Shown here piece after piece: positions 34,274-60,061 of a DNA stretch of 64,000 bases. Every line of letters starts with the position of its first letter. Positions within the stretch are counted from its first letter, which is position 1. The notes under the pieces were generated by a model. The model saw only the letters and a list, made by a program, of their open reading frames with translations, was not told the origin of the DNA and searched no databases. The position numbers were made by a program, and so were the translations under genes. Origin of the DNA: an uncultured Oscillospiraceae bacterium (lineage in GTDB: Bacteria > Bacillota > Clostridia > Oscillospirales > Acutalibacteraceae); assembly GCA_900547445.1 (NCBI GenBank), contig URGJ01000001.1:53556-117555 (forward strand). Direction: 5' to 3'.

Positions 34274-34289
34274 GATTCTACTCCCACTC
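34274..34289. repeat. att core repeat C (left junction of integrative element 2; gattctacTCCCACTC)
   Basis: Reverse complement reads GAGTGGGAGTAG (EWE-stop). Located between a chromosomal operon and the arm-type repeats of element 2. Confidence 0.55.
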
Positions 34290-34390
34290 GACGAGGACTA
34301 AACAATTCTGTTTATGTAATTTTGCTTTTCGTTAGTCTCTCTGTTTTGATTTTACGATGTATCTGTATTATCCTGTGCCAAAATGCCCTT

Positions 34391-34420
34391 GTTATCATTT
34401 TGTTATCGTGGTTGATAACA
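34391..34420. repeat. Arm-type repeats GTTATCA x2 (11-bp phasing) plus inverted TGATAAC, at the left end of element 2
   Basis: gttatcattttgttatcgtggttgataac. The same GTTATCAAA motif recurs with 11-bp phasing at 46887-46906, the right end of element 2. Confidence 0.5.
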
Positions 34421-34541
34421 AGAATAATTTCACCGTGGATAATAAGGAAGTGGTATGTGTGTATTATATCGCACTTGACCTCAAATTGCAATATGTTTTT
34501 CAAAATTTACACGCAAGATTGACAAAAAGCGTGCAAACCTC

Positions 34542-34570
34542 TTGCGGTTTAGGGAACAATCTATTATAAT
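34542..34570 (+). promoter_or_regulatory. Candidate promoter for the abiEi-abiEii-hhe operon
   Basis: TTGCGG (34542-34547), 17-nt spacer, then TATAAT (34565-34570). The ATG at 34597 is 27 nt downstream. Confidence 0.35.
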
Positions 34571-34596
34571 ATAAACACGCATAATGAGAATACTGC

Positions 34597-35226
34597 ATGC
34601 AGAAAGTTGGTGGCAGTTTGAGTAAGCACGATATCGTAAACGAAGTATTTAATACAGTCGGTGAAGTTGCAAAGAAATCTGATTTCATTTCTGCCGGACT
34701 GAAAGAACAAGATATTTATACACTTTTTAAGCAGGGATATATTGAACGTGTCAGGTATGGTTATTATAAACTGTCTGTTGGGGATGAACTCAAAGAAGAA
34801 GTTCTCCTTTCCAAATTGATGACACAAGGCATCGTTTGTGTTGAATCGGCGCTGTTTTATTACGGTTACAGCGATTTTGCACCCCGTGAGTGGACGATTA
34901 CCGTTCCCCGTTCCTATTCCAGAACCGTAAAAGCCATACAGGAAAAAGTACCGGTAAAGGCGTATTATGTTCAGAACGATATGTACCACCTCGGTGAAAC
35001 AACAGGTACTTTTAACGGTGTCACACTTCCCGTATATGACCGTGAACGCACTATCTGTGACTGTTTCAAATACCGTACGAAGCTGGATAATGAGATATTT
35101 AATAAAGCAATCAACGCCTATGTATCAGACGAAAAGAAAAACCTTGCCACCCTTTCCAAATATGCAAAAGAAATGGGCGTTTATAAAAAAATGATGAATG
35201 TAATGGAGGTACTGCTTAATGGCTGA
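34597..35226 (+). CDS. abiEi: AbiEi-family antitoxin / transcriptional regulator (type IV toxin-antitoxin)
   Basis: 209-aa protein with N-terminal wHTH-like and C-terminal AbiEi-type domains. 8-nt overlap with the downstream AbiEii nucleotidyltransferase. Confidence 0.65.
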   Translation: MQKVGGSLSKHDIVNEVFNTVGEVAKKSDFISAGLKEQDIYTLFKQGYIERVRYGYYKLSVGDELKEEVLLSKLMTQGIVCVESALFYYGYSDFAPREWTITVPRSYSRTVKAIQEKVPVKAYYVQNDMYHLGETTGTFNGVTLPVYDRERTICDCFKYRTKLDNEIFNKAINAYVSDEKKNLATLSKYAKEMGVYKKMMNVMEVLLNG

Positions 35227-36115
35227 TATTGCTGCATCTGTGCTTGCACGACTGAAAAATAAGGCTGCCGAAAGCGGAAGAAGTTATCAGCTTTGTCTGC
35301 AGCTCTTTTGCCAGGAAGAATTTCTGCGCCGTTTGGAAAAATCCAAATATGCAGAAAATCTTGTGCTGAAAGGCGGATTGTTTATCTATTCCCTTACCGA
35401 CTTTGACAGCCGAGTAACAGTTGATGTGGACTTTTTGCTCCGCCAAATGCCAAATACGCCGGAGCAGTTAAAAACCGTGTTGGAGGAAATTATTGCAACA
35501 CCTACCGGAAACGACTTTATCACTTTTGAGATTAAAGATATTGCTCCTATTGCTGTTGCCAAAAAGTATGCAGGAATCGGTGCATCGGTGGTCGCCCGCA
35601 TTAAAAACACCAAAACACCGTTCAGTATTGACTTTGGTGTAGGAGATGTCATCGTACCGAAACAGGAAAAACGAAAAATCCCGACACAGCTTTCCGACTT
35701 TGACGCCCCGACAGTAAATACATACTCCCTTGAAACAACCATTGCCGAGAAGATTGACGTTATTCTTAGTCTAATGGAATTTTCAAGCCGAATGAAAGAT
35801 TACTACGATATTTACTATCTTGCCAATAAATTTGATTTTGACGGCAAGGTGCTCACCGAAGCACTTAAGAAAACTTTTGAAAATCGTGGACACACCTTTA
35901 CGGTTGAACAGTTTGAGCAGGTTATGGGCTTTGACAGAGACGGCTCAATGCAAAAGAAATGGAAAGCATTTGTCCGAAAAATTGATACAAAAACCGATGA
36001 TTATGGTACTGTGCTGAAAACAATAAAAGAGTTTCTTACAGAACCGTTTGTAGCGGCAGTCAAAGGTAAAGAGATTATTGACAAATGGTCTGCTTATAGT
36101 GGGAAATGGATGTAA
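35219..36115 (+). CDS. abiEii: AbiEii/AbiGii-family nucleotidyltransferase toxin (DUF1814)
   Basis: Characteristic N-terminus MADIAASVLARLKNKAAESGRSYQLCLQLFCQEEFLRRL, and the block ENLVLKGGLFIYSLTDFDSRVTVDVDF that I take to be the nucleotidyltransferase core. Confidence 0.8.
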   Translation: MADIAASVLARLKNKAAESGRSYQLCLQLFCQEEFLRRLEKSKYAENLVLKGGLFIYSLTDFDSRVTVDVDFLLRQMPNTPEQLKTVLEEIIATPTGNDFITFEIKDIAPIAVAKKYAGIGASVVARIKNTKTPFSIDFGVGDVIVPKQEKRKIPTQLSDFDAPTVNTYSLETTIAEKIDVILSLMEFSSRMKDYYDIYYLANKFDFDGKVLTEALKKTFENRGHTFTVEQFEQVMGFDRDGSMQKKWKAFVRKIDTKTDDYGTVLKTIKEFLTEPFVAAVKGKEIIDKWSAYSGKWM

Positions 36116-39100
36116 TTTTGGAGGTAGTTATGGCAAATATTGACGTTAAATATGATGTTTGGAAAAACAAACTATTGGATTTAGGAAAACGCAATAGATT
36201 GTTGAATTATAAAGATACTGCACGCTCAAATGTTAAAATTGAATACCCCGAGTGCGGCACTCTGTATAATATGATTGTAAAAGAAGAGAACGCATTGGTC
36301 TTTCCTTTTGAATACGACGAAGAAAATTCAGAAATCGAATATGTTTCTAATGTTGAAACTAATAAAAATACCAGTGATTTGCAAAAAGCACTTAGAAATT
36401 TAAGAAATAAGGCAAAGACTGCTATTGAGGAACAAGGTGTAAATGTCTTGTATCTTTCGTTTGGTTTTCTGAAATGGACAGAATCAGAAAACTCCAATCA
36501 GAGTTTTACATCTCCGTTAGTTTTAGTTCCGGTTACATTAACAATCGAATCAATTAAATCTCCATATACTTTAACACTTCACGAAGATGAAATCGTTGTC
36601 AATCCCACCCTTGTTTATAAACTTGAAAATGATTTTGGAATTACTCTGCCTACGTTTGATGAAAACGGGGATATTGACGACTTTCTTGAAGAAGTCAAAA
36701 GAAGTATTACATTAAAGAACTGGTCAGTTACAAAGGATGTTGGGCTGAGTCTGCTTTCTTTTTTGAAAATCAATATGTATTCAGACTTAAACAAACATAA
36801 AGAATCTATCGTTGCTAATCCTATCGTAAGAGCAATAAGTGGTGATGCGTCTGCTATTACCAGAATTTCTGACGAAATGACAGATTTCGATTTTGATAAG
36901 CAGATAAAACCGACTGATGTATTTCAAGTTGTAGATGCCGATGCCAGTCAACAAGATGCTATCATGATGGCGAAAAAAGGCGTTAGCTTTGTTTTACAGG
37001 GGCCTCCCGGCACCGGTAAAAGCCAAACGATTACAAATATAATTGCCGAAAGTCTTGCCGACGGTAAAAAGGTTTTATTTGTTTCTGAAAAGATGGCAGC
37101 TCTTGATGTCGTCCACCGCAGATTATCAAGTGCCGGCTTAGATGATTTCTGTCTTGTTTTACATAGTCATAAGGCAAATAAAAGAAACGTTTTAGACCAA
37201 CTCGGCAAAGTATTGGATCTTAGTCAGAAAAAAGTTAAATTGACTGATGAGGCATACCAAAAATTAAATGTTTTACAAGCAGACAAGGATAAATTAAACG
37301 CTTATGCTGAGCAAGTATATGAAAAAATTGAACCTCTTGGTAAATCAATATATGAAGTGAACGGTATTGTAGCAAACTTAGATAGTTACGATGATTATAT
37401 CTTCGATATTAGCGATATTCGCAATGTGACAAAAGAACAATATAATAAATATAGTTATCTGTTAGCTCAATTTGCTACCACCATTGGAAAAATGACAGAT
37501 GACTTTAAAAACAATCCTTGGCGAGAATGCCACTTAACATCTGTTTCTAACGAGTTTAGACACGATGCAACTTCCCGCCTTAATAATCTTTTGCCTAAAC
37601 TCAAAGATTTTGATGAAAAGTTAGCAGAAGTATTTGTTACACTACATATGGATGTACCGCATACTCTCCAAAATGTGGACCAAATAATTGAAGTGCTAAA
37701 TGTTATTGAATCAGCACAAAAAATCCCATCAGAATGGATACTGACTGATGGAATTCAGCCTTTGTTTGATGAAATTACAAATTGCATCAAACTAAAAAAA
37801 GAACTTATTTCATTGTCAGATAATTTAGCAGATAAATATAAAACAATTCACACAAATGAATCAATAGCGGAGCTTTCTTCTGCTGATTCTTTAAATAATA
37901 CTTCTGCTTTAATAAGCGAGAAACGAAACTTAAAAGAATTAGTTACTTCTACTAAGCCTTATTCTGCTTGGAACACAGATGTAATTGATAGCGTAACAGC
38001 CCTGTTGTCACAGGCTATTGAAACGGCTAATGAAATAAACGCCTTAAAGAATGAACTCCTTGAGGTATATGAACCAACGGTTTTTGAATTGGATTACAAT
38101 GCAATATTAGGACGAATCAAAACAGAATACACCTCGTTTACAAAGGTTTTCAAGAAAGAATACAAACAGGACAAAAAGGCAATACAACTTCATCATAAGA
38201 ATATTGTTAAGAAAATCAGCGATGAAGAAATGCTGTCTCTTGTCGAGAAGCTTCGCAAAATAGACGAAACAAGGCAATGGTATGCCGATAACGCTAAATC
38301 ATTGAGGGAATATTTTGGCGAAGATGTTGTCGATGAAAACACAGATTATACTGTTTATCAAAAACGTATTATAGCATTCAACGCCATAAATAATGCAATT
38401 AAAATCATTAACGATATGGTTGAAATTTTCAATCACATTAGTGATAAGGAACAATTATTGCAAGAACATTACCAATTCTTGTATAACGGAATTTTATCCG
38501 ACTGGGAGGCAATCCGTAGTGCTTTAAATTGGGCAATATCATTTAAGGACAGCATATATAAAATAAACGTTTCAGATTATTTTGTCAAAGCGGTATGTGA
38601 TGGAAATGAATTCATTGACATCTGCAAACAAGAAAATGATACTTTGGAAGAACTTAAGCGTACGATATCTTTCGAGTACAGGTGGTTTGTATCAAATTTT
38701 GCTCATCCTGAAATATTTGATACAATAGAACTTCCCGATCTTTATAATAGGTTAAATGCTTGCGTTAACGGACTGTTTTTATTGGAAGAGTGGATCGATT
38801 TCAGTTCCGCAAAAGCAAACTGTATAGCCGGCGGATTGAGCAGTTTTATAGAGGTTATTGAACAACACAATATTCCGTCACAGGATATTATACCGATTTT
38901 CAAGAAGCGTTTCTTCCGCTTGTGGTTGGATGCTGTACTTCCTGAATATCCTGCTGTTTTGAATTTCAGAAGAAAAGTGCAGGAAGCGACCATTGATGAA
39001 TTCACATTGTTGGATAAAATGCAATTTGAAATTGCAAAAGCTCGAATCAAAAGCAAGCTTATTAATGACTTGCCTTCTCTTGAACATTTTACAAATGGTG

Positions 39101-41145
39101 TCGACGAAATAAGCATATTGAAAAGAGAGTTGAATAAGCAACGCAGAATTATGCCAATCAGACGCTTATTTAAAGCTATCCCTAATTTGTTGCTTACGCT
39201 GAAGCCTTGTTTAATGATGTCTCCACTTTCGGTTAGTTTGTTTTTGGAAGCTGAAACATACAAATTTGATATTGTAATTTTCGATGAGGCTTCTCAAGTG
39301 TGCACAGAAAATGCCATTGGTGCAATTTCAAGAGCGAAGCAAGTTGTCATTGCCGGCGATAGCAGACAATTGCCTCCCACAAATTTCTTTCAGGCAGCAG
39401 TGTCGGAAGGTGATTTTGACACTGATGATGACGACGAATTTGACGATTCAGATGCTTATGAATCCATTCTGGATGAAGCAAATATGTTGCCGGAAAGGAC
39501 TTTAAGATGGCATTACAGAAGTAGGCACGAAAGCTTGATTGCTTTTTCTAATGCCAAAATCTACAAAAACAAACTCATTACGTTCCCCTCAAACATAGAA
39601 AAAGTAGAGAATAATGGTGTCGAATACATATATGTAGCAGATGGCTATTATGATCGAGGCGGTAAGAAAGGAAATGTTATAGAGGCTAATAAAGTAGCTG
39701 ATCTTGTATTTAAACATTTCAAAGAACAACCCTATCGTTCTTTAGGTGTTATTGCATTTGGTGAAGTTCAACAACAAGCCATTGAAACTGTAATTAGAGA
39801 AAGAAGAATTCAAAATCAAGAATTTGAGCCGTTCTTTTCAGAAGATAAAGAGGAAGCATTCTTTATAAAAAATCTTGAAAATGTTCAGGGTGACGAAAGA
39901 GATACTATCATTTTCAGCATAGGATATGCTAAGGATGCCGCAGGTGTGTTCAGGATGAATTTCGGACCTCTTAGCAAATCAGGTGGTGAGCGTCGCTTAA
40001 ATGTTGCAATTACTCGAGCAAAATATAATGTAAAACTTGTCGGCTCGATTATGCCTACCGATATCGATATTGATAAAATTAGTTCTGAGGGTCCGAAGCT
40101 GTTAAGAGCGTATATCGATTTTGCAATAAATGGTACACAGGTACTTGAAAGAGAAATAACCGAAAGCGATATTGTAGAGCATGATTCACCTTTTGAGGAA
40201 GCGGTGTATAATTTCCTCGATAGAAAAGGCTATAAACTTGCAACACAAGTAGGATGTTCGGGTTATAGAATTGATATGGCTGTAAAGCATCCTACATTGA
40301 GCGGAATCTATGTTTTAGGTATAGAATGCGATGGTGCCGCTTATCACTCTGCAAAAACTGCCAGAGAACGTGACCGTTTAAGACAAGATGTCCTTGAAAA
40401 TATGGGTTGGAAAATCTATCGTATATGGTCTACCGATTGGATAAAAGATCCAATAACCGAAGGACAAAAACTTGTTGAGGCCATTGAAAATGCTATTGCC
40501 AATTATGGTATAGATGAAGATGCTATTCAGTTGAATTTAACAAACAATACTCAAAATACAAGTGCTGATGATTTTGTAAGCGTTGAAGAAAAAGAATTGT
40601 CGGTTCAATCCACGGAAAACCCTTATGGATTTGAGGAAGCAGAATTGCCGAATTTCTCATCTTTACCTCGTAACAGATATGGATATTTAGAATTAACAGA
40701 TTGTATTATGGAAGTGGTTAATACAGAATATCCTGTACATTACGAATTGCTTTGTCAACGATTAGCTCCTCTGTTCGGAAATGAAAAGGCGACAGTCAAG
40801 ATTCGTCGAGAAGCCGATATAGGCTTGGCACGATTGGGAACAAGAATTGTTCGTAAAGGCGATTTTATTTTCCCGAATGGTTATGAAACAATTCCTGTTC
40901 GTATGCCAAACAGTAGAAAAATTCAACACATCTGTATTGAAGAACTATCTGAAGCAATGTTTAGAGTTTTGCAAACTTGCGTCGGAACTACAAGAGAAGC
41001 GCTTTGCTCGGAAACCACACGTGTTTACGGTTTTAACAGAGCAGGTCAAAATATTTCGTCAGCAATGTCCAATGCAGTAAATGCTTTAATTTCTACAGGC
41101 AGAGTTGAAGAAATTGAAGGAAAGCTAAAAATAAAAGGAGAATAG
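36106..41145 (+). CDS. Giant (1679 aa) DUF4011 / Upf1-like SF1 helicase / Vsr-DUF559-like endonuclease / DUF3320 protein (Hhe/HheA-like defence protein)
   Basis: DUF4011-like N-terminus (MANIDVKYDVWKNKLLDLGKRNRLLNYKDTARSNVKIEYPECGTLYNMIVKEENALVFPFEYDE). Walker A LQGPPGTGKSQTITN. DEASQ-type Walker B VIFDEASQV. VIAGDSRQLPPT. Motif VI NVAITRAKY. C-terminal Vsr-like block GYRIDMAV...ECDGAAYHSAKTARERDRLRQDVLENMGWKIYRIWSTDW. 10-nt overlap with abiEii. Confidence 0.7.
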   Translation: MDVILEVVMANIDVKYDVWKNKLLDLGKRNRLLNYKDTARSNVKIEYPECGTLYNMIVKEENALVFPFEYDEENSEIEYVSNVETNKNTSDLQKALRNLRNKAKTAIEEQGVNVLYLSFGFLKWTESENSNQSFTSPLVLVPVTLTIESIKSPYTLTLHEDEIVVNPTLVYKLENDFGITLPTFDENGDIDDFLEEVKRSITLKNWSVTKDVGLSLLSFLKINMYSDLNKHKESIVANPIVRAISGDASAITRISDEMTDFDFDKQIKPTDVFQVVDADASQQDAIMMAKKGVSFVLQGPPGTGKSQTITNIIAESLADGKKVLFVSEKMAALDVVHRRLSSAGLDDFCLVLHSHKANKRNVLDQLGKVLDLSQKKVKLTDEAYQKLNVLQADKDKLNAYAEQVYEKIEPLGKSIYEVNGIVANLDSYDDYIFDISDIRNVTKEQYNKYSYLLAQFATTIGKMTDDFKNNPWRECHLTSVSNEFRHDATSRLNNLLPKLKDFDEKLAEVFVTLHMDVPHTLQNVDQIIEVLNVIESAQKIPSEWILTDGIQPLFDEITNCIKLKKELISLSDNLADKYKTIHTNESIAELSSADSLNNTSALISEKRNLKELVTSTKPYSAWNTDVIDSVTALLSQAIETANEINALKNELLEVYEPTVFELDYNAILGRIKTEYTSFTKVFKKEYKQDKKAIQLHHKNIVKKISDEEMLSLVEKLRKIDETRQWYADNAKSLREYFGEDVVDENTDYTVYQKRIIAFNAINNAIKIINDMVEIFNHISDKEQLLQEHYQFLYNGILSDWEAIRSALNWAISFKDSIYKINVSDYFVKAVCDGNEFIDICKQENDTLEELKRTISFEYRWFVSNFAHPEIFDTIELPDLYNRLNACVNGLFLLEEWIDFSSAKANCIAGGLSSFIEVIEQHNIPSQDIIPIFKKRFFRLWLDAVLPEYPAVLNFRRKVQEATIDEFTLLDKMQFEIAKARIKSKLINDLPSLEHFTNGVDEISILKRELNKQRRIMPIRRLFKAIPNLLLTLKPCLMMSPLSVSLFLEAETYKFDIVIFDEASQVCTENAIGAISRAKQVVIAGDSRQLPPTNFFQAAVSEGDFDTDDDDEFDDSDAYESILDEANMLPERTLRWHYRSRHESLIAFSNAKIYKNKLITFPSNIEKVENNGVEYIYVADGYYDRGGKKGNVIEANKVADLVFKHFKEQPYRSLGVIAFGEVQQQAIETVIRERRIQNQEFEPFFSEDKEEAFFIKNLENVQGDERDTIIFSIGYAKDAAGVFRMNFGPLSKSGGERRLNVAITRAKYNVKLVGSIMPTDIDIDKISSEGPKLLRAYIDFAINGTQVLEREITESDIVEHDSPFEEAVYNFLDRKGYKLATQVGCSGYRIDMAVKHPTLSGIYVLGIECDGAAYHSAKTARERDRLRQDVLENMGWKIYRIWSTDWIKDPITEGQKLVEAIENAIANYGIDEDAIQLNLTNNTQNTSADDFVSVEEKELSVQSTENPYGFEEAELPNFSSLPRNRYGYLELTDCIMEVVNTEYPVHYELLCQRLAPLFGNEKATVKIRREADIGLARLGTRIVRKGDFIFPNGYETIPVRMPNSRKIQHICIEELSEAMFRVLQTCVGTTREALCSETTRVYGFNRAGQNISSAMSNAVNALISTGRVEEIEGKLKIKGE

Positions 41146-41299
41146 TTATGAAAGACCATATTATTATTGAAAAAGCCAAAGCATCATTGCCTTAAACAAG
41201 TTTAAGGATGGCGATTTTGTATGCGACGACAAAGAGATTAACGATGTCTTAGCGTACAATAAAATCACCCGTGATGATACAGAAAACAACCAATAAAAA

Positions 41300-41336
41300 A
41301 CGGCGGCAGAGAGCAAAATCCCTGCCGCTTTTTTCC
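41300..41336. terminator. Bidirectional rho-independent terminator between the hhe-like gene and tnpV
   Basis: Stem gcggcag (41303-41309) / ctgccgc (41322-41328), then TTTTTTCC, with AAAAAA upstream. Confidence 0.55.
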
Positions 41337-41338
41337 GG

Positions 41339-41716
41339 TTAGGTGTAAATAAAATCTGTATTCACGACCTCGGTGGCTCTGCTGCGGATGTTGTTCATTC
41401 GACCAACCCACGCCATTTGATTGTCCGCCTTGAGTTGTTCGGTCACACCCTCACGCTCTGCCATCTGTTTCACCAGCCGAGAAAACATTTCTTCCGCCTG
41501 TTTGTCAATATCAGCAAGGTAACTGTTTAACTTGCCGCTGGTCAGCAGATTGGCATATAGCACCCTTCGATTTTGCTTGAGGTGTCGCAAATGTCGCTGT
41601 CCCCATATGCCGATTGGCTGTTGTTCCTCAGCGGGTAATGCAAGGTCAGGCAGATAATAATCTCCCTGCAAGGTGTAACGGATCCCCGTTTTTTCGTCTG
41701 TAAAATGCTGTTTCAT
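41339..41716 (-). CDS. tnpV: TnpV-like transposon-encoded small protein (copy 1)
   Basis: ~125-aa protein of the Tn4451 TnpV type, found next to Mob/Pre relaxases in clostridial mobilizable elements. A paralogue at 53927..54307 shares LTSGKLNSYL.DI..QA...FSRLVK..AE.E.VTE.LK. Confidence 0.55.
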   Translation of the reverse strand: MKQHFTDEKTGIRYTLQGDYYLPDLALPAEEQQPIGIWGQRHLRHLKQNRRVLYANLLTSGKLNSYLADIDKQAEEMFSRLVKQMAEREGVTEQLKADNQMAWVGRMNNIRSRATEVVNTDFIYT

Positions 41717-41725
41717 TGTGTTGTC

Positions 41726-42904
41726 CTACCTTTCATCTTTATTATTTCTAAAGCGTTTTTCACGCTGTTTAGACTGTTTTTCCAACTTTGCTCTATCAAG
41801 CAAGTCATAAATTTGTTTATGACCAAATACTTTGTGGAGAAGTTTGTAATCCCTGTTTTCCACACGCAAATTTTCATTTTCTTGTGATAATTTTTCATTA
41901 ACTTTCGATAGCTTCTCGTTTTCACGATATAGGTTTCCGTTTGTGATGTTCAATCTGTGGTAACTGTCCAATGCCTTGAAATATCGTGCAAATAAGGTGC
42001 TGATTAAAGACTTAAATCGGGCTACAAGCGGCTCAACAAACTTTGTTTTATAACTTCTCGCCGACATCATTGCAGGCGGTTCAGGGAGCTGATATTCAGG
42101 CTCATTCATTATACTTTCATCAAGTTTCTGCAAGGCTTTCTCTCCGTTATCGAAGTTCTCAATGCGGTCAGCCATAACACGAAACTCATCTTTTTTCTCG
42201 GCAATTTGATTGTCCAATACAGCGATTTCCTTTTCTCGCTCCTGCTTTTTATAGTCTAAAACAGACAGATGTTTTTCGTGAGTATCCTTGTGTTCCCACT
42301 CAATTCCGTAGCGTTCCATAACAAATGCGAGTGCGGATTTTTCTGCGCTTACCCATTGATTCCACTCGGTATCTCCACGGGTTCCGCCCTTAAATCCTTG
42401 TGCGGCAAGAGCCTGCTTGAGTGATACTCTTGTATCAAGTCCACGCTTGCTTCCGATGGTGAACGGAACAAAATCAATGTGCAGATGTGGTGTTGCTTCG
42501 TCCATATGAAGATGAGCAGAGAACACTTTTAACTGAGGATTGCGTTCCTGAAACCCACGATAGTATTCATCCAAAATCCGTCGTGCAAACTCTCCGTTTT
42601 CGCTTTCTGCGCTCATATTTTCTTTATCGCCTATCTGCAAAATGAGTTCGTGGAACGGCTTTTCTTGCTTTGAATTACGGATTTTTTCATAATAGTTTTC
42701 TATCTTGCGGTCGGCTCTTGTCTGCTTAGAATTATATCTTTTAAGAGCTTCGTCAAACAATTCGTGATAGACATTTTTGATATTTTCATTGCAGTAGTCG
42801 ATATTTAGATGTGTTCGACTACCGTCAATATTTTCCGCTTTGAACTTGCGGCTGTTGTGATTAACCGAGCCTTTACCGACCATTGCACTAATCGTTCTTT
42901 TCAT
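41726..42904 (-). CDS. mob: MobV/Pre-family plasmid recombination/mobilization relaxase (TnpZ-like), copy 1
   Basis: Mob_Pre N-terminus MKRTISAMVGKGSVNHNSRKF and the metal-binding His motif HLHMDEATPHLHIDFVPF. Confidence 0.85.
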   Translation of the reverse strand: MKRTISAMVGKGSVNHNSRKFKAENIDGSRTHLNIDYCNENIKNVYHELFDEALKRYNSKQTRADRKIENYYEKIRNSKQEKPFHELILQIGDKENMSAESENGEFARRILDEYYRGFQERNPQLKVFSAHLHMDEATPHLHIDFVPFTIGSKRGLDTRVSLKQALAAQGFKGGTRGDTEWNQWVSAEKSALAFVMERYGIEWEHKDTHEKHLSVLDYKKQEREKEIAVLDNQIAEKKDEFRVMADRIENFDNGEKALQKLDESIMNEPEYQLPEPPAMMSARSYKTKFVEPLVARFKSLISTLFARYFKALDSYHRLNITNGNLYRENEKLSKVNEKLSQENENLRVENRDYKLLHKVFGHKQIYDLLDRAKLEKQSKQREKRFRNNKDER

Positions 42905-42940
42905 TAAATTTCACATCCTTTCCTTATCCGGCGTAGCCGG

Positions 42941-46096: not shown

Positions 46097-46139
46097 GTGG
46101 CTTGCAAGAAAATACTAAACTTTTTTGTTTTGATTTCTC

Positions 46140-46168: not shown

Positions 46169-46198
46169 ATATGTGAACACTTGAAAAGAGGTGCTTTT

Positions 46199-51512: not shown

Positions 51513-51525
51513 AACCGTACTCTCC

Positions 51526-52446: not shown

Positions 52447-52451
52447 CTAAT

Positions 52452-53513
52452 TTACTCCTCGTTAAAACAAATACACAAAAATAATCTTTCGGCATTTTCT
52501 GAAATGTCAGATTTTCCGGTTGTAAATGCTTTGTAGCTTTCTTCAAAAACCTTTACAGTTCCTTTTTGACTCAGTATTCTCATAATATCATCGTCGGAAA
52601 TCTTGGCATTAGAACGGCAATTTCCTTTTTCAGCCATATTATTATATGAAAGTAGAATGTATTTGGCTTTAATATCGTTTATCAGTGTTTCAAATGCTTT
52701 TGTTGCTCCGATTGTACAATATTTACTCTTCATTCCGCTTCTATCCATCTTCTTGGCGACACCAAAAACCTCTGGTTTTTCCCAACGTGCAACATTTTCA
52801 AGCAAATGATATGAATCACAATATTGTCTTGAATTATATGGCGGATCTATATAAACGAGGTCAGCCTCAATCCTCTTAACAAGGTTATTGGCATCCTCAT
52901 TAAAGCATTGATTTTTGGGATTGTTGTTAACTTCAGCCAAGGGAACATAAAGTTCCAACGAACCTTCGAATTTTGCCCCCTTTCTGTATGCATCGTAATG
53001 CCCGCAGGTTACAGCAATTTTATCCATTGCATAAAGCAGTGATGTTATTAAGATTGCTCTTTCTCGATTATTTAAATTGCCTTTTTTATAATTTCGTTCT
53101 ATATCCTCTCGAATATATCCGATTTTAGCGCAATCTTTTTTACTGAAATAGGTATCTGCAAAATTGCGTGTCATATAATTTTCCTCACAATTAGTTTTTG
53201 CATTGTACCTAACAACATAATCAATTATTTTTTGTTGATCATAGCTTTCAGCACCAAACCAAGCAAAATTGCAAATATAGTTGCTATACATCAAATCATT
53301 TGTAATAAGTGTCTTATCTGCAAAAGCAGAAGAAACTGCACCGGTTCCCGCAAAAATATCTGCAACTGTTTCAATATCGGCGCATTCATCATTTACAACG
53401 CCGGTGATAAACGAAAGCAACTTATATTTATTTCCTAAATAACGTCTATTGTTTATCAATGAGGTTTTATAAGTATTTTCAGTTGCAGTCATTGCAAATC
53501 CTCCAACAATCAT
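52452..53513 (-). CDS. D12-class N6-adenine DNA methyltransferase, M2 (DpnA-like)
   Basis: YLGNKYKLLSFI, DIFAGTGAVS, and catalytic VYIDPPYN. Confidence 0.8.
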   Translation of the reverse strand: MIVGGFAMTATENTYKTSLINNRRYLGNKYKLLSFITGVVNDECADIETVADIFAGTGAVSSAFADKTLITNDLMYSNYICNFAWFGAESYDQQKIIDYVVRYNAKTNCEENYMTRNFADTYFSKKDCAKIGYIREDIERNYKKGNLNNRERAILITSLLYAMDKIAVTCGHYDAYRKGAKFEGSLELYVPLAEVNNNPKNQCFNEDANNLVKRIEADLVYIDPPYNSRQYCDSYHLLENVARWEKPEVFGVAKKMDRSGMKSKYCTIGATKAFETLINDIKAKYILLSYNNMAEKGNCRSNAKISDDDIMRILSQKGTVKVFEESYKAFTTGKSDISENAERLFLCICFNEE

Positions 53514-53583
53514 CTTTATCTATCTATAATTATACTAAATATTTAGATTATATCAAATACAGTGTCCAATAAATCGTACTCTT

Positions 53584-53790
53584 TCAAATTCCGTCAAACA
53601 GTTCCGAAAGAGATATTTCTAATCCATTGGCTATTTTTTCAATGTTAACGATAGAAATATTACGTTTTCCAAGTTCAACGCTTGCAAAATAAGTTCTATC
53701 CATACCTATTTTTTGAGCAAATTTTTCTTGACTCAATCCGGTATGACTTCTTAACTCTCGTATTCTATTACCAATTTTATCTGTAATCAT
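53584..53790 (-). CDS. Controller (C) protein, XRE-family HTH, of the R-M operon
   Basis: 68-aa HTH_3 protein IRELRSHTGLSQEKFAQKIGMDRTYFASVELGKRNISIVNIEKIA, 70 nt upstream of the first methylase on the same strand. Confidence 0.65.
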   Translation of the reverse strand: MITDKIGNRIRELRSHTGLSQEKFAQKIGMDRTYFASVELGKRNISIVNIEKIANGLEISLSELFDGI

Positions 53791-53884
53791 AATGTACCCT
53801 CGATATTAAATTGCACATACCGCAGACTATATTTATACAGTTTAATTATATGTTTAATCCGCAAATAAGTCAACTGTTTTTAAG

Positions 53885-53916
53885 CAACAAAAAATCGGCA
53901 GGGATTGCTCCCTGCC
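53885..53916 (-). terminator. Rho-independent terminator after tnpV copy 2
   Basis: Stem ggcaggga (53897-53904) / tccctgcc (53909-53916) with 4-nt loop. On the minus strand it is followed by GATTTTTTGTTG. Confidence 0.6.
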
Positions 53917-53926
53917 GCTGTTGTGT

Positions 53927-54307
53927 TTATACTGTGTAAATCAGTTCTGCATTTACAATTTCTGTTGATCTATTACGGATATTGTTCATCTTTTGAACCC
54001 ACAACATCATATCGGTTGATTTGAGTTCTTCGGTTACATTTTCTTTTTCGGCTAAGTCTTTTACAAGCCGAGAAAAAAGGTCTTGAGCCTGCTGTTCAAT
54101 ATCTACAAGATATGAATTGAGCTTACCGCTTGTCAGCAAATTGTAGTAACGTACCTTATGGTGTTGCTTCAAATATCGTTTATGCCTCATTCCCCAAACG
54201 CCGATATTCGCTTCCTTTTCTTCTTCCGCCGGTAATAAATCGGGCAACATATAGTCGCCCACCTGCGTATAAGTACCGCCTTGCTTTTCAAAAATTGTGT
54301 TTGCCAT
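53927..54307 (-). CDS. tnpV: TnpV-like protein, copy 2
   Basis: Paralogue of 41339..41716. Confidence 0.55.
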   Translation of the reverse strand: MANTIFEKQGGTYTQVGDYMLPDLLPAEEEKEANIGVWGMRHKRYLKQHHKVRYYNLLTSGKLNSYLVDIEQQAQDLFSRLVKDLAEKENVTEELKSTDMMLWVQKMNNIRNRSTEIVNAELIYTV

Positions 54308-54331
54308 TTTGTTTTACCTCCAAAAATTTAT

Positions 54332-55492
54332 TTATCTCGAGCGTGGATTTTCACGCTTACGACCTTTAATATTTCTTGCCTGTTCAAGCAACTCGTCAAT
54401 CTGTTTATGCCCGAAAGCCTTACGCAAAAGCTTGTAATCTTTGACCTCCGAACGCAAATTTTCGTTTTCGCTTTTCAGCTTGCTGTTGATTTTAGACAAC
54501 ATTTCGTTCTCACGATATAGGTTGCCATTTGTAATATTTAGCCTGTGGTAATTGTCCCAACCCTCAAAACAACGAGCCAATGCAGTCTTAATTAACGCTT
54601 TTAATTTTTGAATAAGCGGCTCTGCAATTTTAGTTTTATATGCTTTTACAGACATAAAACCTTGCGGCTCGGACAGTTGATATTCGGGTGCATTATCAAG
54701 CATTTCTTCCACATTTCTTAAGTTTTCCAAACCATCATCATAGTTTAACACTCGCTCGGATAACACATTGAATTCAGTCTGTTTTTCTTCGATTTTAGCA
54801 CCTAACTGTTCAAGTTCCGTCGCTCGCTCTTGCTTTTTATAATCAAGAACAGACAAATGTTTTTCGTGCGAGCCTTTATGTTCCCACTCAATTCCGTGCC
54901 GTTCCATTACGAAAGCTAAAGCGGACTTTTCTACGCTTACCCATTGATTCCACTCGGTATCTCCACGAGTTCCGCCCTTGAAACCTTGTGCGGCTAACGC
55001 TTGTTTGAGACTTACTCTCGTATCAAGTCCACGCTTGCTTCCGGTTGTGAACGGAACAAAATCAATATGCAAATGGGGCGTCGCCTCGTCCATATGCAGA
55101 TGAGCAGAGAACACTTTTAGGTTGGGATTTCGCTCTTGAAATCCACGGTAATACTCATCTAAAACCTGCCGTGCAAGCTGTCCGTTTTCGCTTTCGGCAC
55201 TCATATTTTCCTTATCGCCAATCTGCAAAATCAGTTCGTGAAACGGTTTTTCTTGCTTAGAATTTCTGATTTTTTCATAGTAATTTTCTATTCTACGGTC
55301 GGCTCTTGTCTGTTTTTCGTTGTATCTTTTTAGCGCTTCATCAAACAATTCGTGATAGATTTTCTTTATCGGCTCGTTACAGTAATCAATGTTCAAATGC
55401 GTTCTGCTACCATCAACATTTTCCGCCTTGAACTTGCGGCTGTTATGATTGACCGAGCCTTTACCCACCATTGCGCTTATCGTTCTTTGCAT
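54332..55492 (-). CDS. mob: MobV/Pre-family relaxase, copy 2
   Basis: MQRTISAMVGKGSVNHNSRKF ... HLHMDEATPHLHIDFVPF. GGAGG RBS 9 nt before the ATG at 55492; the track ORF start at 55663 is a spurious extension. Confidence 0.85.
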   Translation of the reverse strand: MQRTISAMVGKGSVNHNSRKFKAENVDGSRTHLNIDYCNEPIKKIYHELFDEALKRYNEKQTRADRRIENYYEKIRNSKQEKPFHELILQIGDKENMSAESENGQLARQVLDEYYRGFQERNPNLKVFSAHLHMDEATPHLHIDFVPFTTGSKRGLDTRVSLKQALAAQGFKGGTRGDTEWNQWVSVEKSALAFVMERHGIEWEHKGSHEKHLSVLDYKKQERATELEQLGAKIEEKQTEFNVLSERVLNYDDGLENLRNVEEMLDNAPEYQLSEPQGFMSVKAYKTKIAEPLIQKLKALIKTALARCFEGWDNYHRLNITNGNLYRENEMLSKINSKLKSENENLRSEVKDYKLLRKAFGHKQIDELLEQARNIKGRKRENPRSR

Positions 55493-55529
55493 TATATACA
55501 CCTCCAATCTCATAAACTTGCTCGTCCTC

Positions 55530-55575
55530 GGTTCTGTTACTCTTGTCAAGAGTAACGCAAAAGCACTTTTGACAG
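55530..55575. promoter_or_regulatory. Putative oriT, copy 2 (identical 46-nt block)
   Basis: Identical to 42941-42986. Confidence 0.5.
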
Positions 55576-55741
55576 GCAAGCCCATCAAAAATGCAACCTG
55601 CAAGCAGGTTTTGCGCTCTCCGAGGGGCAAAGAGCCGCCTTTGAAAAGGCACTCTCTGCACACTCCGCTAAACTTTATCTGTGTCGGTCTGTGTCGATAG
55701 TGACGGTGATTTTGTCACCGCCTAAAACAGCGACACAACCG

Positions 55742-56893
55742 TCACACATCGTCACGCTGTTCATAAGTCAAACTAACTTTACGCCCATCGTGACAGCGTT
55801 TGTTCTGATAACGGATTCCATACTCATCGAACAAACGCCCTGCATTGATATTCAGCTTCATCGTCAAAGCGTTTGCTTTCATTTCAACGCCGAGAAATTC
55901 AACAAGTTCCGTCGGGCTGCCATACCATTCGGGATTTTCATTTGTGATTTTGACGGCGATATTTTCAAGCAAAGGTTCAGGCGGCAATTTCCAAAGTTCC
56001 GTTTCGGTTCTCTCAAGTTCCCACACAAGGGTTTCAGGATTGCGATTGAGATAAATCTTTTGATCGGGCTGGTCTCTGCCTGAAACTTCAAGCGTTGCCG
56101 AATTGCTTGTTCGTTTTTCTTTCCGTAAAATAAAGCCACCGTCGGCGGCGCCAAGCAATCCGTTAGTTCCTGAAATCATATCAAACTTATCCTCAGAGTT
56201 CTGCTTGCGTGTATGATGAACAAGCAGCAAACATATTCCGTAACTGTCCGCAAACTTTTTAAGCCTTGTTATAATCTCATAATCGTTTGCGTAACTGTAA
56301 TTATCACCGCCCACTTCACGCACCTTTTGGAGAGTGTCTATGATAATCAATTTTGTATCGGGGTGTTCTGCCATAAATCTTGTAAGCTGTTCGTCAAGTC
56401 CACTTCCAAGTTGACCCGCCGAAACAGAAAAGTACAAATTATTCGCACTTTCTGTTCCGAACATCCTATACAATCTTTCTTGCAATCTGTGGTAATCATC
56501 TTCAAGCGCAAGGTACAAAACAGTTCCTTTTCTCACATCAAAATTCCAAAGCGGTGTACCTGTACTGATATGGTAAGCAAGCTGTGCCATAAGAAAACTT
56601 TTGCCGAGTTTTGGTGCTCCTGCAAAAATATATGTGCCCGGATAAAGCAAACCGTCAATCAGCGGCGGTTTACTTTGATATACCGTGTTATACAACTCAC
56701 GCATAGAAATCGTTTTCAAATGTGATGGATCGAGCTGTTGCAAAAATTCTTTTTGCATTTCTTCAAGATAATCATCTAAACTCTTGTCATTTTCATTAAA
56801 ATCAGTTATACTGTTGTTAATTTGTTTTAGGATTGACTGCTCCGTATCTGCGCCAACAGATACGATCGGAGCGGTCTTTTCTTTTTCTGTCAT
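55742..56893 (-). CDS. AAA_25-type ATPase with N-terminal extension, copy 2
   Basis: Walker A GAPKLGKSFL and Walker B LIIIDTLQ. 4-nt overlap with the MobC-like gene. Confidence 0.7.
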   Translation of the reverse strand: MTEKEKTAPIVSVGADTEQSILKQINNSITDFNENDKSLDDYLEEMQKEFLQQLDPSHLKTISMRELYNTVYQSKPPLIDGLLYPGTYIFAGAPKLGKSFLMAQLAYHISTGTPLWNFDVRKGTVLYLALEDDYHRLQERLYRMFGTESANNLYFSVSAGQLGSGLDEQLTRFMAEHPDTKLIIIDTLQKVREVGGDNYSYANDYEIITRLKKFADSYGICLLLVHHTRKQNSEDKFDMISGTNGLLGAADGGFILRKEKRTSNSATLEVSGRDQPDQKIYLNRNPETLVWELERTETELWKLPPEPLLENIAVKITNENPEWYGSPTELVEFLGVEMKANALTMKLNINAGRLFDEYGIRYQNKRCHDGRKVSLTYEQRDDV

Positions 56894-57216
56894 TCCGATG
56901 CCTCCTTTAATCCACCGAGAATATCAGCAATCATTTCGATTAAATCAAGTAATTCGTCATTGACTTCACCGCCGTTCTCAATTCTCTGTAATTCCGTAAG
57001 TACATCTGCAAGATTATTACGCAAAGCCTTGTATACTCTCGGATTACCTTGAACGACCACTTCTTTGTTAGTAAGTCGCCTTGTGATATAGTCCTGCTTG
57101 GTTAAACCCGAAAGCTGAACATAGCGCTCAATCTGTTCCCACTCTTCGGGCGAAACTCTAAAAGCCACAGTCTTATTTCTCCAACGGTTATGTTCATCTT
57201 TGTTTTTAAGTGACAT
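56890..57216 (-). CDS. RHH mobilization accessory protein (MobC-like), copy 2
   Basis: RNKTVAFRVSPEEWEQIERYVQLSGLTKQDY. GGAAGGAGAG RBS 8 nt before the MSLKNKDEH start. Confidence 0.5.
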   Translation of the reverse strand: MSLKNKDEHNRWRNKTVAFRVSPEEWEQIERYVQLSGLTKQDYITRRLTNKEVVVQGNPRVYKALRNNLADVLTELQRIENGGEVNDELLDLIEMIADILGGLKEASE

Positions 57217-57217
57217 A

Positions 57218-58297
57218 TTACTTTCTCTCCTTCCATAATTCATCAAGCGTATTTGCCATTTCATTTTGTTTTGACGGATATATGTGTGTATATCTGTCGG
57301 TAATTTCCACTGTTTCGTGACCAACCCTATCAGCAATTGCAGCGGCTTGATACCCTTGATTTATTAAAAGTGAAACATGCGAATGTCTCAAATCGTGAAT
57401 ACGAATACGCTTTACCCCTGTGGCTTTTGAGCCTCGGTCCATTTCGTGATGAAGATAGCTTTTTGAAATAGGGAATATTCTGTCTCCGTCATTCGGTGAA
57501 TAAAACATTTTCAAATATTCCTGCATTTCATCACATAAAAACTGCGGCATTTTTATTGTTCTTTTGCTTTTCTCCGTTTTCGGTGGAGTAATAACATCTT
57601 CTCCGTGCAATCTTTGATAAGATTTGTTGATTGTAAGCATATTGTTTTTAAAGTCAAAATCACCGGCAGTTAATGCAAGCAACTCACCTACACGAATACC
57701 TGTCCAATAAAGCATTTGAAAAGCATAATATGAAATAGGCTTGTCCATCATTTCATCAGAAAACTTACTGTATTCCTCCACAGTCCAATAACTCATTTCC
57801 TTGCGTTCTTCCTTACCCATATTACCGACCGTAGAGGCAGGATTTAATCTTAAGCCGTAAATCTTGATTGCGTGATTGAACAATGCACTCAACTGATTAT
57901 GAATCGTCTTTAAATATCCCTGAGAAAGCGGCTCTCCACTTGAATTTGTTTGCCTTCTAATCTCATTTTGCCAAGCGATAACATCTTTTGCCGATATATC
58001 GCATAATCGCTTATGCTCAAAATACGGCAATATTTTAGTTTTAATAATATGTTCTTTGGTAAGCCAAGTGTTTTCCTTTAACTTTGGTCTAACATCTTTT
58101 TCGTACAATTCCGTAAAAGTCTTAAATGGCATAGTGACATCGGCTTTCTTTTCGGTCAGAAATGCTCGTTCCCACTCCTGTGCCTCTCGTTTGGTGGCAA
58201 AGCCACGCTTTAATTTTTGCTGTCGCAAGCCTTGCCAGTCTGTGTAACGGAACTGCACATACCAAGTTCCGTTTTTTTCATTTTTAAATGCTCCCAT
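57218..58297 (-). CDS. int: Tyrosine-type site-specific integrase, copy 2 (~70% identical to copy 1 by eye)
   Basis: IRIHDLRHSHVSLLINQGYQAAAIADRVGHETVEITDRYTHI. AAAGGAG RBS before MGAFKNEKNGTWY. Confidence 0.9.
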   Translation of the reverse strand: MGAFKNEKNGTWYVQFRYTDWQGLRQQKLKRGFATKREAQEWERAFLTEKKADVTMPFKTFTELYEKDVRPKLKENTWLTKEHIIKTKILPYFEHKRLCDISAKDVIAWQNEIRRQTNSSGEPLSQGYLKTIHNQLSALFNHAIKIYGLRLNPASTVGNMGKEERKEMSYWTVEEYSKFSDEMMDKPISYYAFQMLYWTGIRVGELLALTAGDFDFKNNMLTINKSYQRLHGEDVITPPKTEKSKRTIKMPQFLCDEMQEYLKMFYSPNDGDRIFPISKSYLHHEMDRGSKATGVKRIRIHDLRHSHVSLLINQGYQAAAIADRVGHETVEITDRYTHIYPSKQNEMANTLDELWKERK

Positions 58298-58298
58298 T

Positions 58299-58505
58299 TT
58301 AATCGCTCCTTTCAATTGTTTTAGTTGAGTAAAATTTTTCGTGAAAGAATTTACGGTCAATTCTGCCGGGAATTGTAATACACCCGGTTGACTGCAATTC
58401 CTTGTTTAGTTTGCGTATGAGTTTATATGCGTAAGAAACGGAGACGCCCATTTCTTCTGCCACATCTTCAACACGCATAAACATTTTATTTGACATAAAC
58501 ATCAT
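58299..58505 (-). CDS. xis: Excisionase (Xis), copy 2
   Basis: MRVEDVAEEMGVSVSYAYKLIRKLN HTH. Confidence 0.65.
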   Translation of the reverse strand: MMFMSNKMFMRVEDVAEEMGVSVSYAYKLIRKLNKELQSTGCITIPGRIDRKFFHEKFYSTKTIERSD

Positions 58506-58645
58506 CCTTTCATTTTTATATTTTCATATTTATTGTCGGATACTTTCTGACCGCATTCCGATTTGCCCGAGCGGATACACCATTACCGTGATGTATGACG
58601 GTTATTCTGTTGTTTGCGAATAGACTTAACGCTATTTGCTTAATG

Positions 58646-58674
58646 ATTATACTAAACATATTCCGTTATGTCAA
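58646..58674 (-). promoter_or_regulatory. Sigma-70 promoter for xis-int (element 1)
   Basis: TTGACA (rc of 58669-58674), 17-nt spacer, TATAAT (rc of 58646-58651). Confidence 0.55.
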
Positions 58675-58716
58675 GTGGTTTTCACAAGAATATTAAACTT
58701 TTTTGTTTTATGTTAC

Positions 58717-58746
58717 TTGACATTGCTTAACTTGTTATGCTATGAT
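58717..58746 (+). promoter_or_regulatory. Sigma-70 promoter for the XRE repressor (element 1)
   Basis: TTGACA (58717-58722), 18-nt spacer, TATGAT (58741-58746). GAGAGGAG RBS and ATG at 58777. Confidence 0.55.
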
Positions 58747-58776
58747 ATTTAACAGTAAAGTGAGAGGAGCTATAGT

Positions 58777-59247
58777 ATGGCTATCGGCGAAAGAATAAGA
58801 TTTTTCAGAAATTTAAAAGGTATGACGCAGAAGTACCTTGGTATGCAGGTGGGCTTTCCGGAAAAAACCGCTGACATCCGTATGGCACAGTATGAATCCG
58901 GCAGCAGAACGCCTAAGGCTGATTTAACAAACAATCTTGCAAATGTGTTTGGCATATCGACAAGTGCCTTAACTGTGCCCGACATTGACAGCTACAACGG
59001 ATTAATGCACACTCTGTTTACTCTTGAGGATTTATACGGTTTCCGTATTGGTAAACTTGATGATGAGCTTTGCATACGCCTTGATAAAGGTATGGGAACA
59101 AATTATCTTACAATGTTTGATATGTTTTCCACTTGGCAGGAACAAGCAGAAAAACTTAAAAACGGCGAAATCACAAAAGAAGAATATGATAATTGGAGAT
59201 ATAACTACCCCGAAGGCGTAGCTTTCAATTATCGTAAGGAGGGATAA
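58777..59247 (+). CDS. XRE-family (cI-like) HTH repressor, copy 2
   Basis: MAIGERIRFFRNLKGMTQKYLGMQVG. Paralogue of 46199..46729. Confidence 0.8.
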   Translation: MAIGERIRFFRNLKGMTQKYLGMQVGFPEKTADIRMAQYESGSRTPKADLTNNLANVFGISTSALTVPDIDSYNGLMHTLFTLEDLYGFRIGKLDDELCIRLDKGMGTNYLTMFDMFSTWQEQAEKLKNGEITKEEYDNWRYNYPEGVAFNYRKEG

Positions 59248-59249
59248 AA

Positions 59250-59855
59250 ATGCCTGTAGTAAATGTTAATTTACTAGTTGACGAAAAGACATATGCTGCT
59301 GTTCAAGCCGGAGTTTTGGAACTCTGCGGTATGGCGAAAAATATTGACAACAAACGAGTTGCAAAGCATATTCCCGCTGTTGCAGATGCTGCTAAAGAAG
59401 GTGCAGCTAAGGCTATTGATTTTATTCGTGTTCATAAAAAGGGTACTGTTATTGTTAGTGGAATTCTCATAATAGGTAGTGCTGTTGCCGGTGTCATCGG
59501 TTACATTGCAACCCGTGATAAAAGAAACCTTGAAAAGCGATTTGCCCAAAATCTTCAGATTTATTTAGATGCCGCAAAAGATGGCAAACTAACTGTGGAA
59601 ATTTTAGATAATTTAATAAACTCCCTTGATGAACTTTCAAATGACGATACTTCTAAGGCAGTAAACTTGAAAATCACGCCTTCCCAATTTAGTGATTTGA
59701 TACAAAACATATTTGATTACACCGTATGTTTGGCTGAAGCAAATAATATGAGTCCGACACTTATTAGCAAGCCCAAGATTTTGAAGAAAAAAAACTATTC
59801 CGATCTACAATACTATTTGAATATGCAAAAAAATATTTTTGAGCAAGTCGCTTAA
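59250..59855 (+). CDS. Single-pass membrane protein of unknown function, co-transcribed with the XRE repressor
   Basis: Starts 3 nt after the XRE stop. Central TM helix TVIVSGILIIGSAVAGVIGYIA. No homologue recognised. Confidence 0.45.
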   Translation: MPVVNVNLLVDEKTYAAVQAGVLELCGMAKNIDNKRVAKHIPAVADAAKEGAAKAIDFIRVHKKGTVIVSGILIIGSAVAGVIGYIATRDKRNLEKRFAQNLQIYLDAAKDGKLTVEILDNLINSLDELSNDDTSKAVNLKITPSQFSDLIQNIFDYTVCLAEANNMSPTLISKPKILKKKNYSDLQYYLNMQKNIFEQVA

Positions 59856-59868
59856 AACAAGCATAGAA

Positions 59869-59910
59869 AAAAGGCATTACCGACTGCAAAAGTCAGTAAT
59901 GCCTTTTATA
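59869..59910 (+). terminator. Rho-independent terminator at the end of element 1
   Basis: Stem aaggcattac(c)gactg (59871-59886) / agtcagtaatgcctt (59891-59905) with one bulge, then TTTAT. Confidence 0.6.
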
Positions 59911-59972
59911 GTATTAAAATATTTGTACCTGCAAACCGATAGAACGCTTAGAATAAAGTCATTTTTCAGTTT

Positions 59973-59990
59973 GCTATCATTTTGCTATCA
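59973..59990. repeat. Arm-type repeats GCTATCA x2 (11-bp phasing), right end of element 1
   Basis: tttgctatcattttgctatcaaa. Confidence 0.5.
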
Positions 59991-60046
59991 AATCGGGAAT
60001 TTGAGAGTCTAAAACCCAGTGTTTATGCGGGTTTACGCAACTCTTG

Positions 60047-60061
60047 ATATTATTCCCACTC
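60047..60061. repeat. att core repeat A at the true 3' end of guaA (atATTATTCCCACTC)
   Basis: Overlaps the guaA stop codon. The reverse complement reads GAGTGGGAATAA, i.e. ...IEWE-stop. Confidence 0.7.

Follow-up and report, generated by a model that had tools for sequence, protein, structure and literature searches.

The window analysed here is a 64,000-nucleotide (nt) stretch of contig URGJ01000001.1 from an uncultured Oscillospiraceae bacterium, in which an array of four units lies in tandem behind the 3′ end of guaA. Two of the units, designated E2 and E1, qualify on their gene content as intact integrative and mobilizable elements (IMEs), and two, E0 and a fourth-unit remnant, are decayed. 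The array is very probably the product of serial site-specific integration of all four units into the guaA 3′ end. The original prediction, made from the window alone, described two IMEs stacked head-to-tail. Its account of E1 and E2 stands, but the array is longer by E0 and a stub beyond it.

The integration target, guaA, occupies positions 60050-61576 of the minus strand and encodes a GMP synthase of 508 amino acids, recognized by its Pfam GATase and GMP_synt_C domains, its translation, and its start codon. Translation and Pfam bear out the predicted gene end at 60050, with a C-terminus of TIEWE followed by a TAA stop codon. Four copies of this gene end, the cores, are found on the minus strand. 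J3 (60050-60061) is the present end of guaA and the attL of E2, and is where homology to other E2 copies begins; J2 (46964-46975) separates E2 from E1; J1 (34278-34289) separates E1 from E0; and J0 (30294-30305) lies between E0 and the fourth-unit remnant. Read on the guaA strand, J3 and J2 are both GAGTGGGAATAA, J1 is GAGTGGGAGTAG, and J0 is GAGTGGGAATGA, and the four junctions have TAA, TAA, TAG, and TGA as stop codons. The exact repeat predicted at J3 and J2 is real but 13 nt long (attattcccactc) rather than 15, and the degenerate copy placed near 34274-34289 is present as J1, whereas J0 had been missed. Shuffled sequence would be expected to give 0.02 matches to the pattern GAGTGGGARTRR, whereas the window gives four, every one of them on the minus strand. 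The repeats are therefore not chance matches; a chance origin had been named beforehand as a finding that would count against the prediction.

Element-specific arm repeats accompany the cores, and the positions of the heptamers agree with the two flavours, the 11-bp phase, and the presence at both element ends that were originally described for E1 and E2. The E2 heptamer is GCTATCA, beginning at 59973 and 59984 in the guaA-proximal P′ arm and at 47079, 47090, and 47104 in the distal P arm (three repeats, 47079-47110, plus strand). The E1 heptamer is GTTATCA, beginning at 46887 and 46898 in the P′ arm (two repeats, 46887-46904) and at 34391 and 34402 in the P arm (34391-34419). E0 retains two GTTGTCA repeats in its P arm (30407 and 30418; 30407-30424), and GTTGTCA and GTTGCCA lie beyond J0 at 30218 and 30229. 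The pattern GYYRTCAN4GYYRYCR, which was defined post hoc from the sites themselves, has exactly six matches, all on the plus strand and at the six element ends, against 0.05 expected. The arm pair on the guaA-proximal side of each unit starts 59-60 nt past the stop codon, and single-sequence folds place a hairpin between the core and this pair. A AATTGTTTA(A)GTC motif is conserved in the P arms of E0 and E1, with a looser version in E2.

The core-to-arm hairpin is located at 59990-60049, 46904-46963, and 30235-30293 of the window and in the first ∼58 nt after guaA in ∼40 loci. Many relatives have a strong hairpin (z −4 to −7.7, with a T-run in some), whereas those of E1 and the fourth unit in the window are weak. 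The hairpin may be a replacement guaA terminator or a protein-binding site. RNAalifold found no consensus structure among 28 P′-arm sequences, in which the hairpin register shifts from one sequence to another.

E2 extends over 13.1 kb (46976-60049, minus strand), as delimited with Pfam, PADLOC, gene calls in eight other contigs (L161-L168), and its near-identical copies in them. Its P′ arm (59856-60049, minus) consists of the hairpin beside the core and then two GCTATCA repeats (59973-59990), 60 nt from the stop codon, and is followed by a 201-amino-acid open reading frame (ORF; 59250-59855, plus). The backbone genes then encode an XRE regulator (58777-59247, plus) and, on the minus strand, Xis (58298-58496), a tyrosine integrase, Int (57218-58297), a NikA-like protein (56890-57216), an AAA_25 ATPase (55742-56893), the MobV relaxase (54332-55492), and TnpV (53927-54307). 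The cargo comprises a restriction-modification (RM) system with a C-protein (53584-53790), two D12 methyltransferases (52452-53492 and 51526-52446), and an AlwI-like restriction endonuclease (49542-51512), together with a PUA-like/metallophosphoesterase protein (47954-49534) and a HAD hydrolase (47131-47952; PADLOC 'Hydrolase', E = 1e-50). The last two genes (47131-49534) are kept alongside the RM system in every E2 copy.

E1 extends over 12.7 kb (34290-46963, minus), as delimited with Pfam, PADLOC, gene calls in contig L170, and intact catalytic motifs. Its XRE regulator (46199-46729, plus) is followed on the minus strand by Xis (45685-45885), Int (44610-45698), the NikA-like protein (44288-44620), AAA_25 (43176-44150), MobV (41726-42904), and TnpV (41339-41716). 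The cargo, on the plus strand, encodes a DUF4011-helicase-MTES_1575 nuclease of 1671-1679 amino acids that PADLOC assigns as PDC-S37/Hhe-like (36130-41145), AbiEii (35219-36115), and AbiEi (34597-35226). PADLOC thus confirms the anti-phage cargo proposed for both elements.

The two backbones have the same order and orientation by Pfam: a divergent XRE gene, then Xis, Int, NikA-like, AAA_25, Mob_Pre/MobV, and TnpV. This is the complete module originally described, except that the protein termed MobC is a NikA-like ribbon-helix-helix protein. The amino acid identity between E1 and E2 is 69% for Int, 55% for Xis, 53% for the NikA-like protein, 69-76% for MobV, 62% for TnpV, and 56-59% for XRE. 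The AAA_25 proteins are only 26% identical across 186 residues and have different closest relatives in other loci, which marks the backbone as mosaic. Both integrases consist of Arm-DNA-bind_4, SAM-like, and catalytic domains; the N-domain is the Tn916-type arm-binding domain, and the catalytic R, K, HxLRH, H, and Y residues are intact. Xis resembles the Xis of ICEBs1 (E = 2e-17, below the family cut-off), TnpV is assigned to PF14198 (E = 1e-46 to 1e-50), and the relaxase to PF01076 (E ∼1e-23 to 1e-25). Just upstream of mobV, a 46-nt block that holds the inverted repeat GTTACTCTT/AAGAGTAAC is identical in the two elements (55530-55575 in E2 and 42941-42986 in E1, both minus), while its surroundings are ∼70% identical. 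This block is the candidate origin of transfer (oriT), its function being predicted; none of the first 160 loci contains an exact match to its inverted repeat.

The essential features of an IME are present in both elements: an integration and excision module of their own (tyrosine integrase and ICEBs1-like Xis), a relaxase of their own with no mating-pore genes (MobV, the NikA-like protein, and the predicted oriT), and att sites with direct repeats at a specific target, as cores occur at every junction and arm pairs at the unit ends. No type IV secretion or conjugation domain is detected by Pfam in any ORF of the 34.3-60 kb region. E1 and E2 thus satisfy, as judged from their sequences, the IME definition sensu Guedon et al. 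2017. Contig L171 ends within the shared 46-nt block (window position 42957), and many contigs of metagenome-assembled genomes end within a few hundred nt past guaA. Repeated IME sequence, such as the 46-nt block and the att repeats, may be a cause of assembly breaks after guaA.

Independent evidence of mobility is available for E2 only and comes from its copies in other genomes. The exact E2 TnpV is recorded in 320 blocks of public assemblies, of which eight long contigs (L161-L168) were analysed. E2 is present in all eight with 99.5-99.98% identity to the window. The match spans the full element in seven; in L167 it begins at window position 59592, with the guaA-proximal end cut off. In L161 and L168, where the upstream neighbour is other than guaA, the match begins exactly at 60061, and in all eight contigs it ends at 46963-46968. 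Since these limits of homology coincide with two core copies, E2 is a discrete unit. The flanks vary by contig and include purB-purA-guaA, GH20-M28-HTH-guaA, SpoIIE-GlmS-guaA, another element, and genes of an integrative and conjugative element (ICE). At least three other hosts, only distantly related, have E2 behind guaA; their GuaA proteins are ∼59% identical to that of the window and their guaA genes 68-71% identical to one another. Identity of at least 99.5% within different flanks, in hosts with ∼59% identical GuaA, shows recent transfer: a 13.1-kb element with an RM system has moved between distantly related hosts, entering the same site wherever guaA is the upstream neighbour.

The surroundings of these copies differ in other respects. 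In L161 and L168, E2 is second in an array, behind an element that carries an Eco57I-like RM system and an AAA_21 protein (positions 1-4246 of each contig). In L162, L163, L165, and L167, a 1.2-kb unit (17333-18520), itself delimited by additional copies of the core, comes after E2. In L167 the 99.98% identical E2 abuts genes for RepA_N, DUF3801, a VirD4-like coupling protein, Maff2, and TrbL (1-5100); these ICE-type genes may belong to a helper ICE or to an accretion of ICE and IME.

The natural E2 copies also place the crossover at the 8-bp sequence GAGTGGGA. The proximal junction is invariant, reading GAGTGGGA-ATAA-TATCAAG in every contig that keeps it. At the distal junction, the P arm of E2 and GAGTGGGA are followed by ATAA-TCACAG in the window, by ATAA-TATCAAGTG in L161, by ATAA-CGGAC in L162, L163, L165, L167, and L168, and by GTAG-TTCCCC in L164 and L166. 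The bases past GAGTGGGA stay with the guaA-distal sequence; therefore, both strand exchanges occur within GAGTGGGA or 5′ of its end. The final glutamate codon of guaA thus takes its last base, and the gene its stop codon, from the incoming element. The E2 junctions likewise bear out the notion that an arriving element carries its own version of the gene end, as the proximal end of E2 always reads GAATAA and the distal junction keeps the earlier ending, ATAA or GTAG.

Decay is evident in the units beyond J1. E0 (30306-34277, minus) has lost the genes from XRE through TnpV and retains 35 nt after the core J1 and then a TnpV-type terminator hairpin (34219-34243), the terminator that follows tnpV in E1, E2, and the Ruminococcaceae UMGS949 contig L002. 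Its cargo encodes an MBOAT protein (32735-34093), a GDSL protein (31877-32722), an extracytoplasmic function sigma factor (31386-31874), and a DUF3298 protein (30496-31389). L002, with a GuaA 89% identical to that of the window, harbors the same MBOAT/GDSL/sigma/DUF3298 block with 91% nucleotide identity to E0, still joined to XRE-Xis-Int′-′MobV-TnpV, where an internal deletion fuses the Int N-terminus to the MobV C-terminus. The L002 element (L002:11527-18852, 7.3 kb) lies behind guaA and is bounded by the 14-bp direct repeat GAGTGGGAATGATT. Its two ends carry arms of matching flavour, and beyond its distal junction lie two repeats of a fourth flavour, GACGAC. The TnpV-type terminator and the linkage in the L002 homologue identify 30306-34277 as a decayed IME devoid of recombination and mobilisation genes. 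The sequence to the right of J1 was also considered as the native guaA terminator, with MBOAT as a chromosomal gene. This assignment was rejected because the hairpin follows TnpV in the three other elements, and because the MBOAT block of L002 is part of an element that has the 14-bp repeat at its borders and matching arm flavours.

The fourth unit (29609-30293, minus) is a stub whose distal end is deleted. It comprises a P′-arm-like segment of 141 nt (30153-30293), 88% identical to the P′ arm behind guaA in L002 and bearing GTTGTCA/GTTGCCA arms (30218-30235) 59 nt from the stop codon, a 72-amino-acid ORF (29933-30151, plus), and a truncated response-regulator receiver fragment of 70 amino acids next to greA (29609-29821, plus). 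This fragment may mark where the oldest element lost its distal end by deletion. The first housekeeping gene past the array is greA (28988-29512, minus; Pfam), followed by thyX, a DJ-1 family gene, mltG, and U32 peptidase genes.

Taken together, the locus displays what accretion entails, namely at least two elements at one target, att-type junctions (J3, J2, J1, and J0), and decayed partners, as E0 and the fourth unit have no recombination genes. The successive site-specific integrations at the guaA end that were originally proposed are supported independently by the E2 copies bounded by cores and by an integrase of the same family at 28 of 81 guaA loci. In the mechanism envisaged, the attP of an element carries a mimic of the last codons of guaA (GAGTGGGA followed by RTRR), strand exchange takes place within GAGTGGGA so that GuaA keeps its EWE end, and the element supplies the last base of the final glutamate codon, the stop codon, and a downstream hairpin, displacing the former gene end to its far side. 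Each newcomer would enter the guaA-proximal site and leave the oldest unit furthest from guaA, which suggests the arrival order fragment, E0, E1, and E2. From what is known of these protein families, Int and Xis would excise each unit through its two flanking cores and its own arm sites, the XRE protein would repress xis-int, and MobV would nick the oriT block, with a helper conjugative element providing the pore. The unit-specific heptamers, matched to the integrase N-domain, would limit composite excision and keep the excision of each unit independent.

Several observations weigh against serial integration as set out above. E1 matches only contigs that are 100% identical to the window, and its mobility is predicted from its intact genes and att architecture. 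J1 differs from J2 and J3 at two of 12 positions and has no arm sites on its distal side, and the distal junction of the fourth unit was not found. Scans of genomes and metagenomes with GuaA yielded no empty guaA site and no conspecific (the best matches are 94% and 92% identical), and exact-sequence look-ups of GuaA, E1 Int, and AbiEii returned no matches. The predicted attP sites of E2 and E1 have no match in viral contigs, a search that covered a viral collection only and is uninformative; no excised circle was found, and no conjugative helper is present in the window.

Acquisition of the array en bloc, in whole or in part (E1 with E0, or E2 with E1), as a composite through recombination of the outermost att sites is improbable but deserves consideration, as streptococci are known to transfer tandem elements as composites (PMC5704250) and E1 is seen only joined to E0 and to E2. 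Against it, eight other contexts hold E2 but no E1, L002 has E0-type cargo but no E1, and the outer arm flavours differ between units. A far smaller chance is given to the units being packaged and moved by phages, as satellites or as defective prophage-like islands, rather than being IMEs mobilised by conjugation. The Int-Xis-XRE module and the DnaB/RecA-like AAA_25 ATPase do recall the lysogeny and replication modules of satellites, yet both elements encode MobV and a NikA-like relaxosome protein and have a conserved inverted-repeat block upstream of mobV, Pfam detects no capsid, terminase, or packaging gene, and the viral contigs hold no attP match. The last alternative, in which E1 and E2 arose by duplication in place and divergence, or the repeats by chance in an ancestral chromosome, is practically refuted. 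The shared gene order and orientation would fit a duplication; however, the E1 and E2 proteins are 26-76% identical, while E2 is at least 99.5% identical to its copies in unrelated hosts, and chance would be expected to give 0.02 core matches and 0.05 arm-pair matches, which leaves little room for coincidence.

Serial integration at guaA is not peculiar to the window. Among loci retrieved by GuaA similarity alone, a related integrase lies within 6 kb downstream of guaA in 28 of the 81 loci that have at least 2.5 kb of downstream sequence, and a phased TGnnnnn pair follows guaA in 48 of 138 loci, 38 of them at an offset of 59-60; a control stretch inside guaA contains no such pair. Units are commonly stacked at this site, since other E2 copies are also preceded or followed by other units. 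At least 15 heptamer flavours occur across the guaA loci of relatives, and the flavour co-varies with the sequence of the integrase arm-binding N-domain: TGATAAC accompanies WYVM/LxRY...KQKCKRGF, TGATAGC accompanies WYVQFRY...QQKLKRGF, and TGGCAAC accompanies WRVIYR...KQTQKRGF. A tentative reading, which we regard as possible but somewhat doubtful, is that the guaA IME family of gut Clostridia combines one core with many arm specificities in a natural orthogonality code, in which each flavour sits at the fixed 59-60-nt offset and co-varies with β-strand residues of the arm-binding domain. IMEs could then share one attB and stack without cross-excision, and the guaA 3′ end would be a self-extending defence island. 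The co-variation of arm heptamer and N-domain provides a ready set of integrase/att pairs for studies of arm specificity.

The accretion model of ICESt1 and its cis-mobilizable elements (CIMEs) reportedly goes back to work by Pavlovic in 2004 and Bellanger in 2011. The guaA 3′ end as a target of IMEs and ICEs, accretion, and CIME decay have all been described (PMC5357655, PMC5704250, PMC4844618), and the known guaA-targeting elements include ATE-1 (PMC5704250), GIsul2, the IncP island, elements with streptococcal Tyr_3 integrases, and Tn5801 with 11-bp repeats (PMC4844618). The closest parallel is with the streptococcal IMEs that encode tyrosine integrases (Coluzzi et al. 2017, Guedon et al. 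2017), which integrate into the 3′ end of a conserved gene, guaA being listed, with direct repeats at the junctions. Their tandems (IME1-IME2, CIME-IME) contain integrases that are 21-69% identical within one array, decayed partners, and in some cases MobV relaxases. The published streptococcal tandems are located at rpsI, rpmG, and rplL, whereas four units are present here at guaA; the host also differs, being an uncultured gut Oscillospiraceae/Ruminococcaceae-like member of the Clostridia, as does the backbone of tyrosine integrase, NikA-like protein, AAA_25, MobV, and TnpV. ATE-1 of Trueperella pyogenes, compared by its description, has different cargo and no tandem array described (PMC5704250).

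The likeness originally drawn to Tn5801 in targeting and to Tn4451 in mobilisation holds for the target and for TnpV/MobV, but E1 and E2 are members of neither family. Integration at the guaA 3′ end with ∼11-bp imperfect direct repeats is shared with Tn5801 (PMC4844618). That element is conjugative, belongs to the Tn916 family, and encodes its own conjugation genes; Pfam detects none in E1 or E2, and the lack of a conjugation module sets them apart from its family. TnpV and a Mob/Pre relaxase of the MobV, TnpZ type are common to E1, E2, and the mobilizable Tn4451/Tn4453. Tn4451 relies on the large serine recombinase TnpX and 2-bp GA sites of low specificity (PMC5704250), whereas E1 and E2 encode tyrosine recombinase domains only, with arm sites, a single specific target, and a 12-13-bp core; having no serine recombinase and a specific target, they do not belong to the Tn4451 family. 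Since guaA targeting, tandem accretion, and decay are already known, the array is an ordinary though clear example that leaves current concepts of IME biology unchanged. Its value is that of a cleanly bounded case of a single chromosomal hotspot at which uncultured gut Clostridia accumulate genes for defence and envelope modification.

Base composition supports the origin of the array weakly: the GC content of the array is 32-46% against 45-50% in the flanking housekeeping genes, and the 1-24 kb region of the window is also low in GC. That region (1-24000, GC 0.36-0.43) is a gene cluster that encodes giant BNR/sialidase-like and 3-keto-disaccharide-hydrolase-domain proteins (1927, 753, and 715 amino acids), a NanA-like protein of the dihydrodipicolinate synthase type, YhcH, ABC permeases, FAD oxidoreductases, and an AraC regulator, and it looks like a locus for glycan or sialic-acid utilisation.

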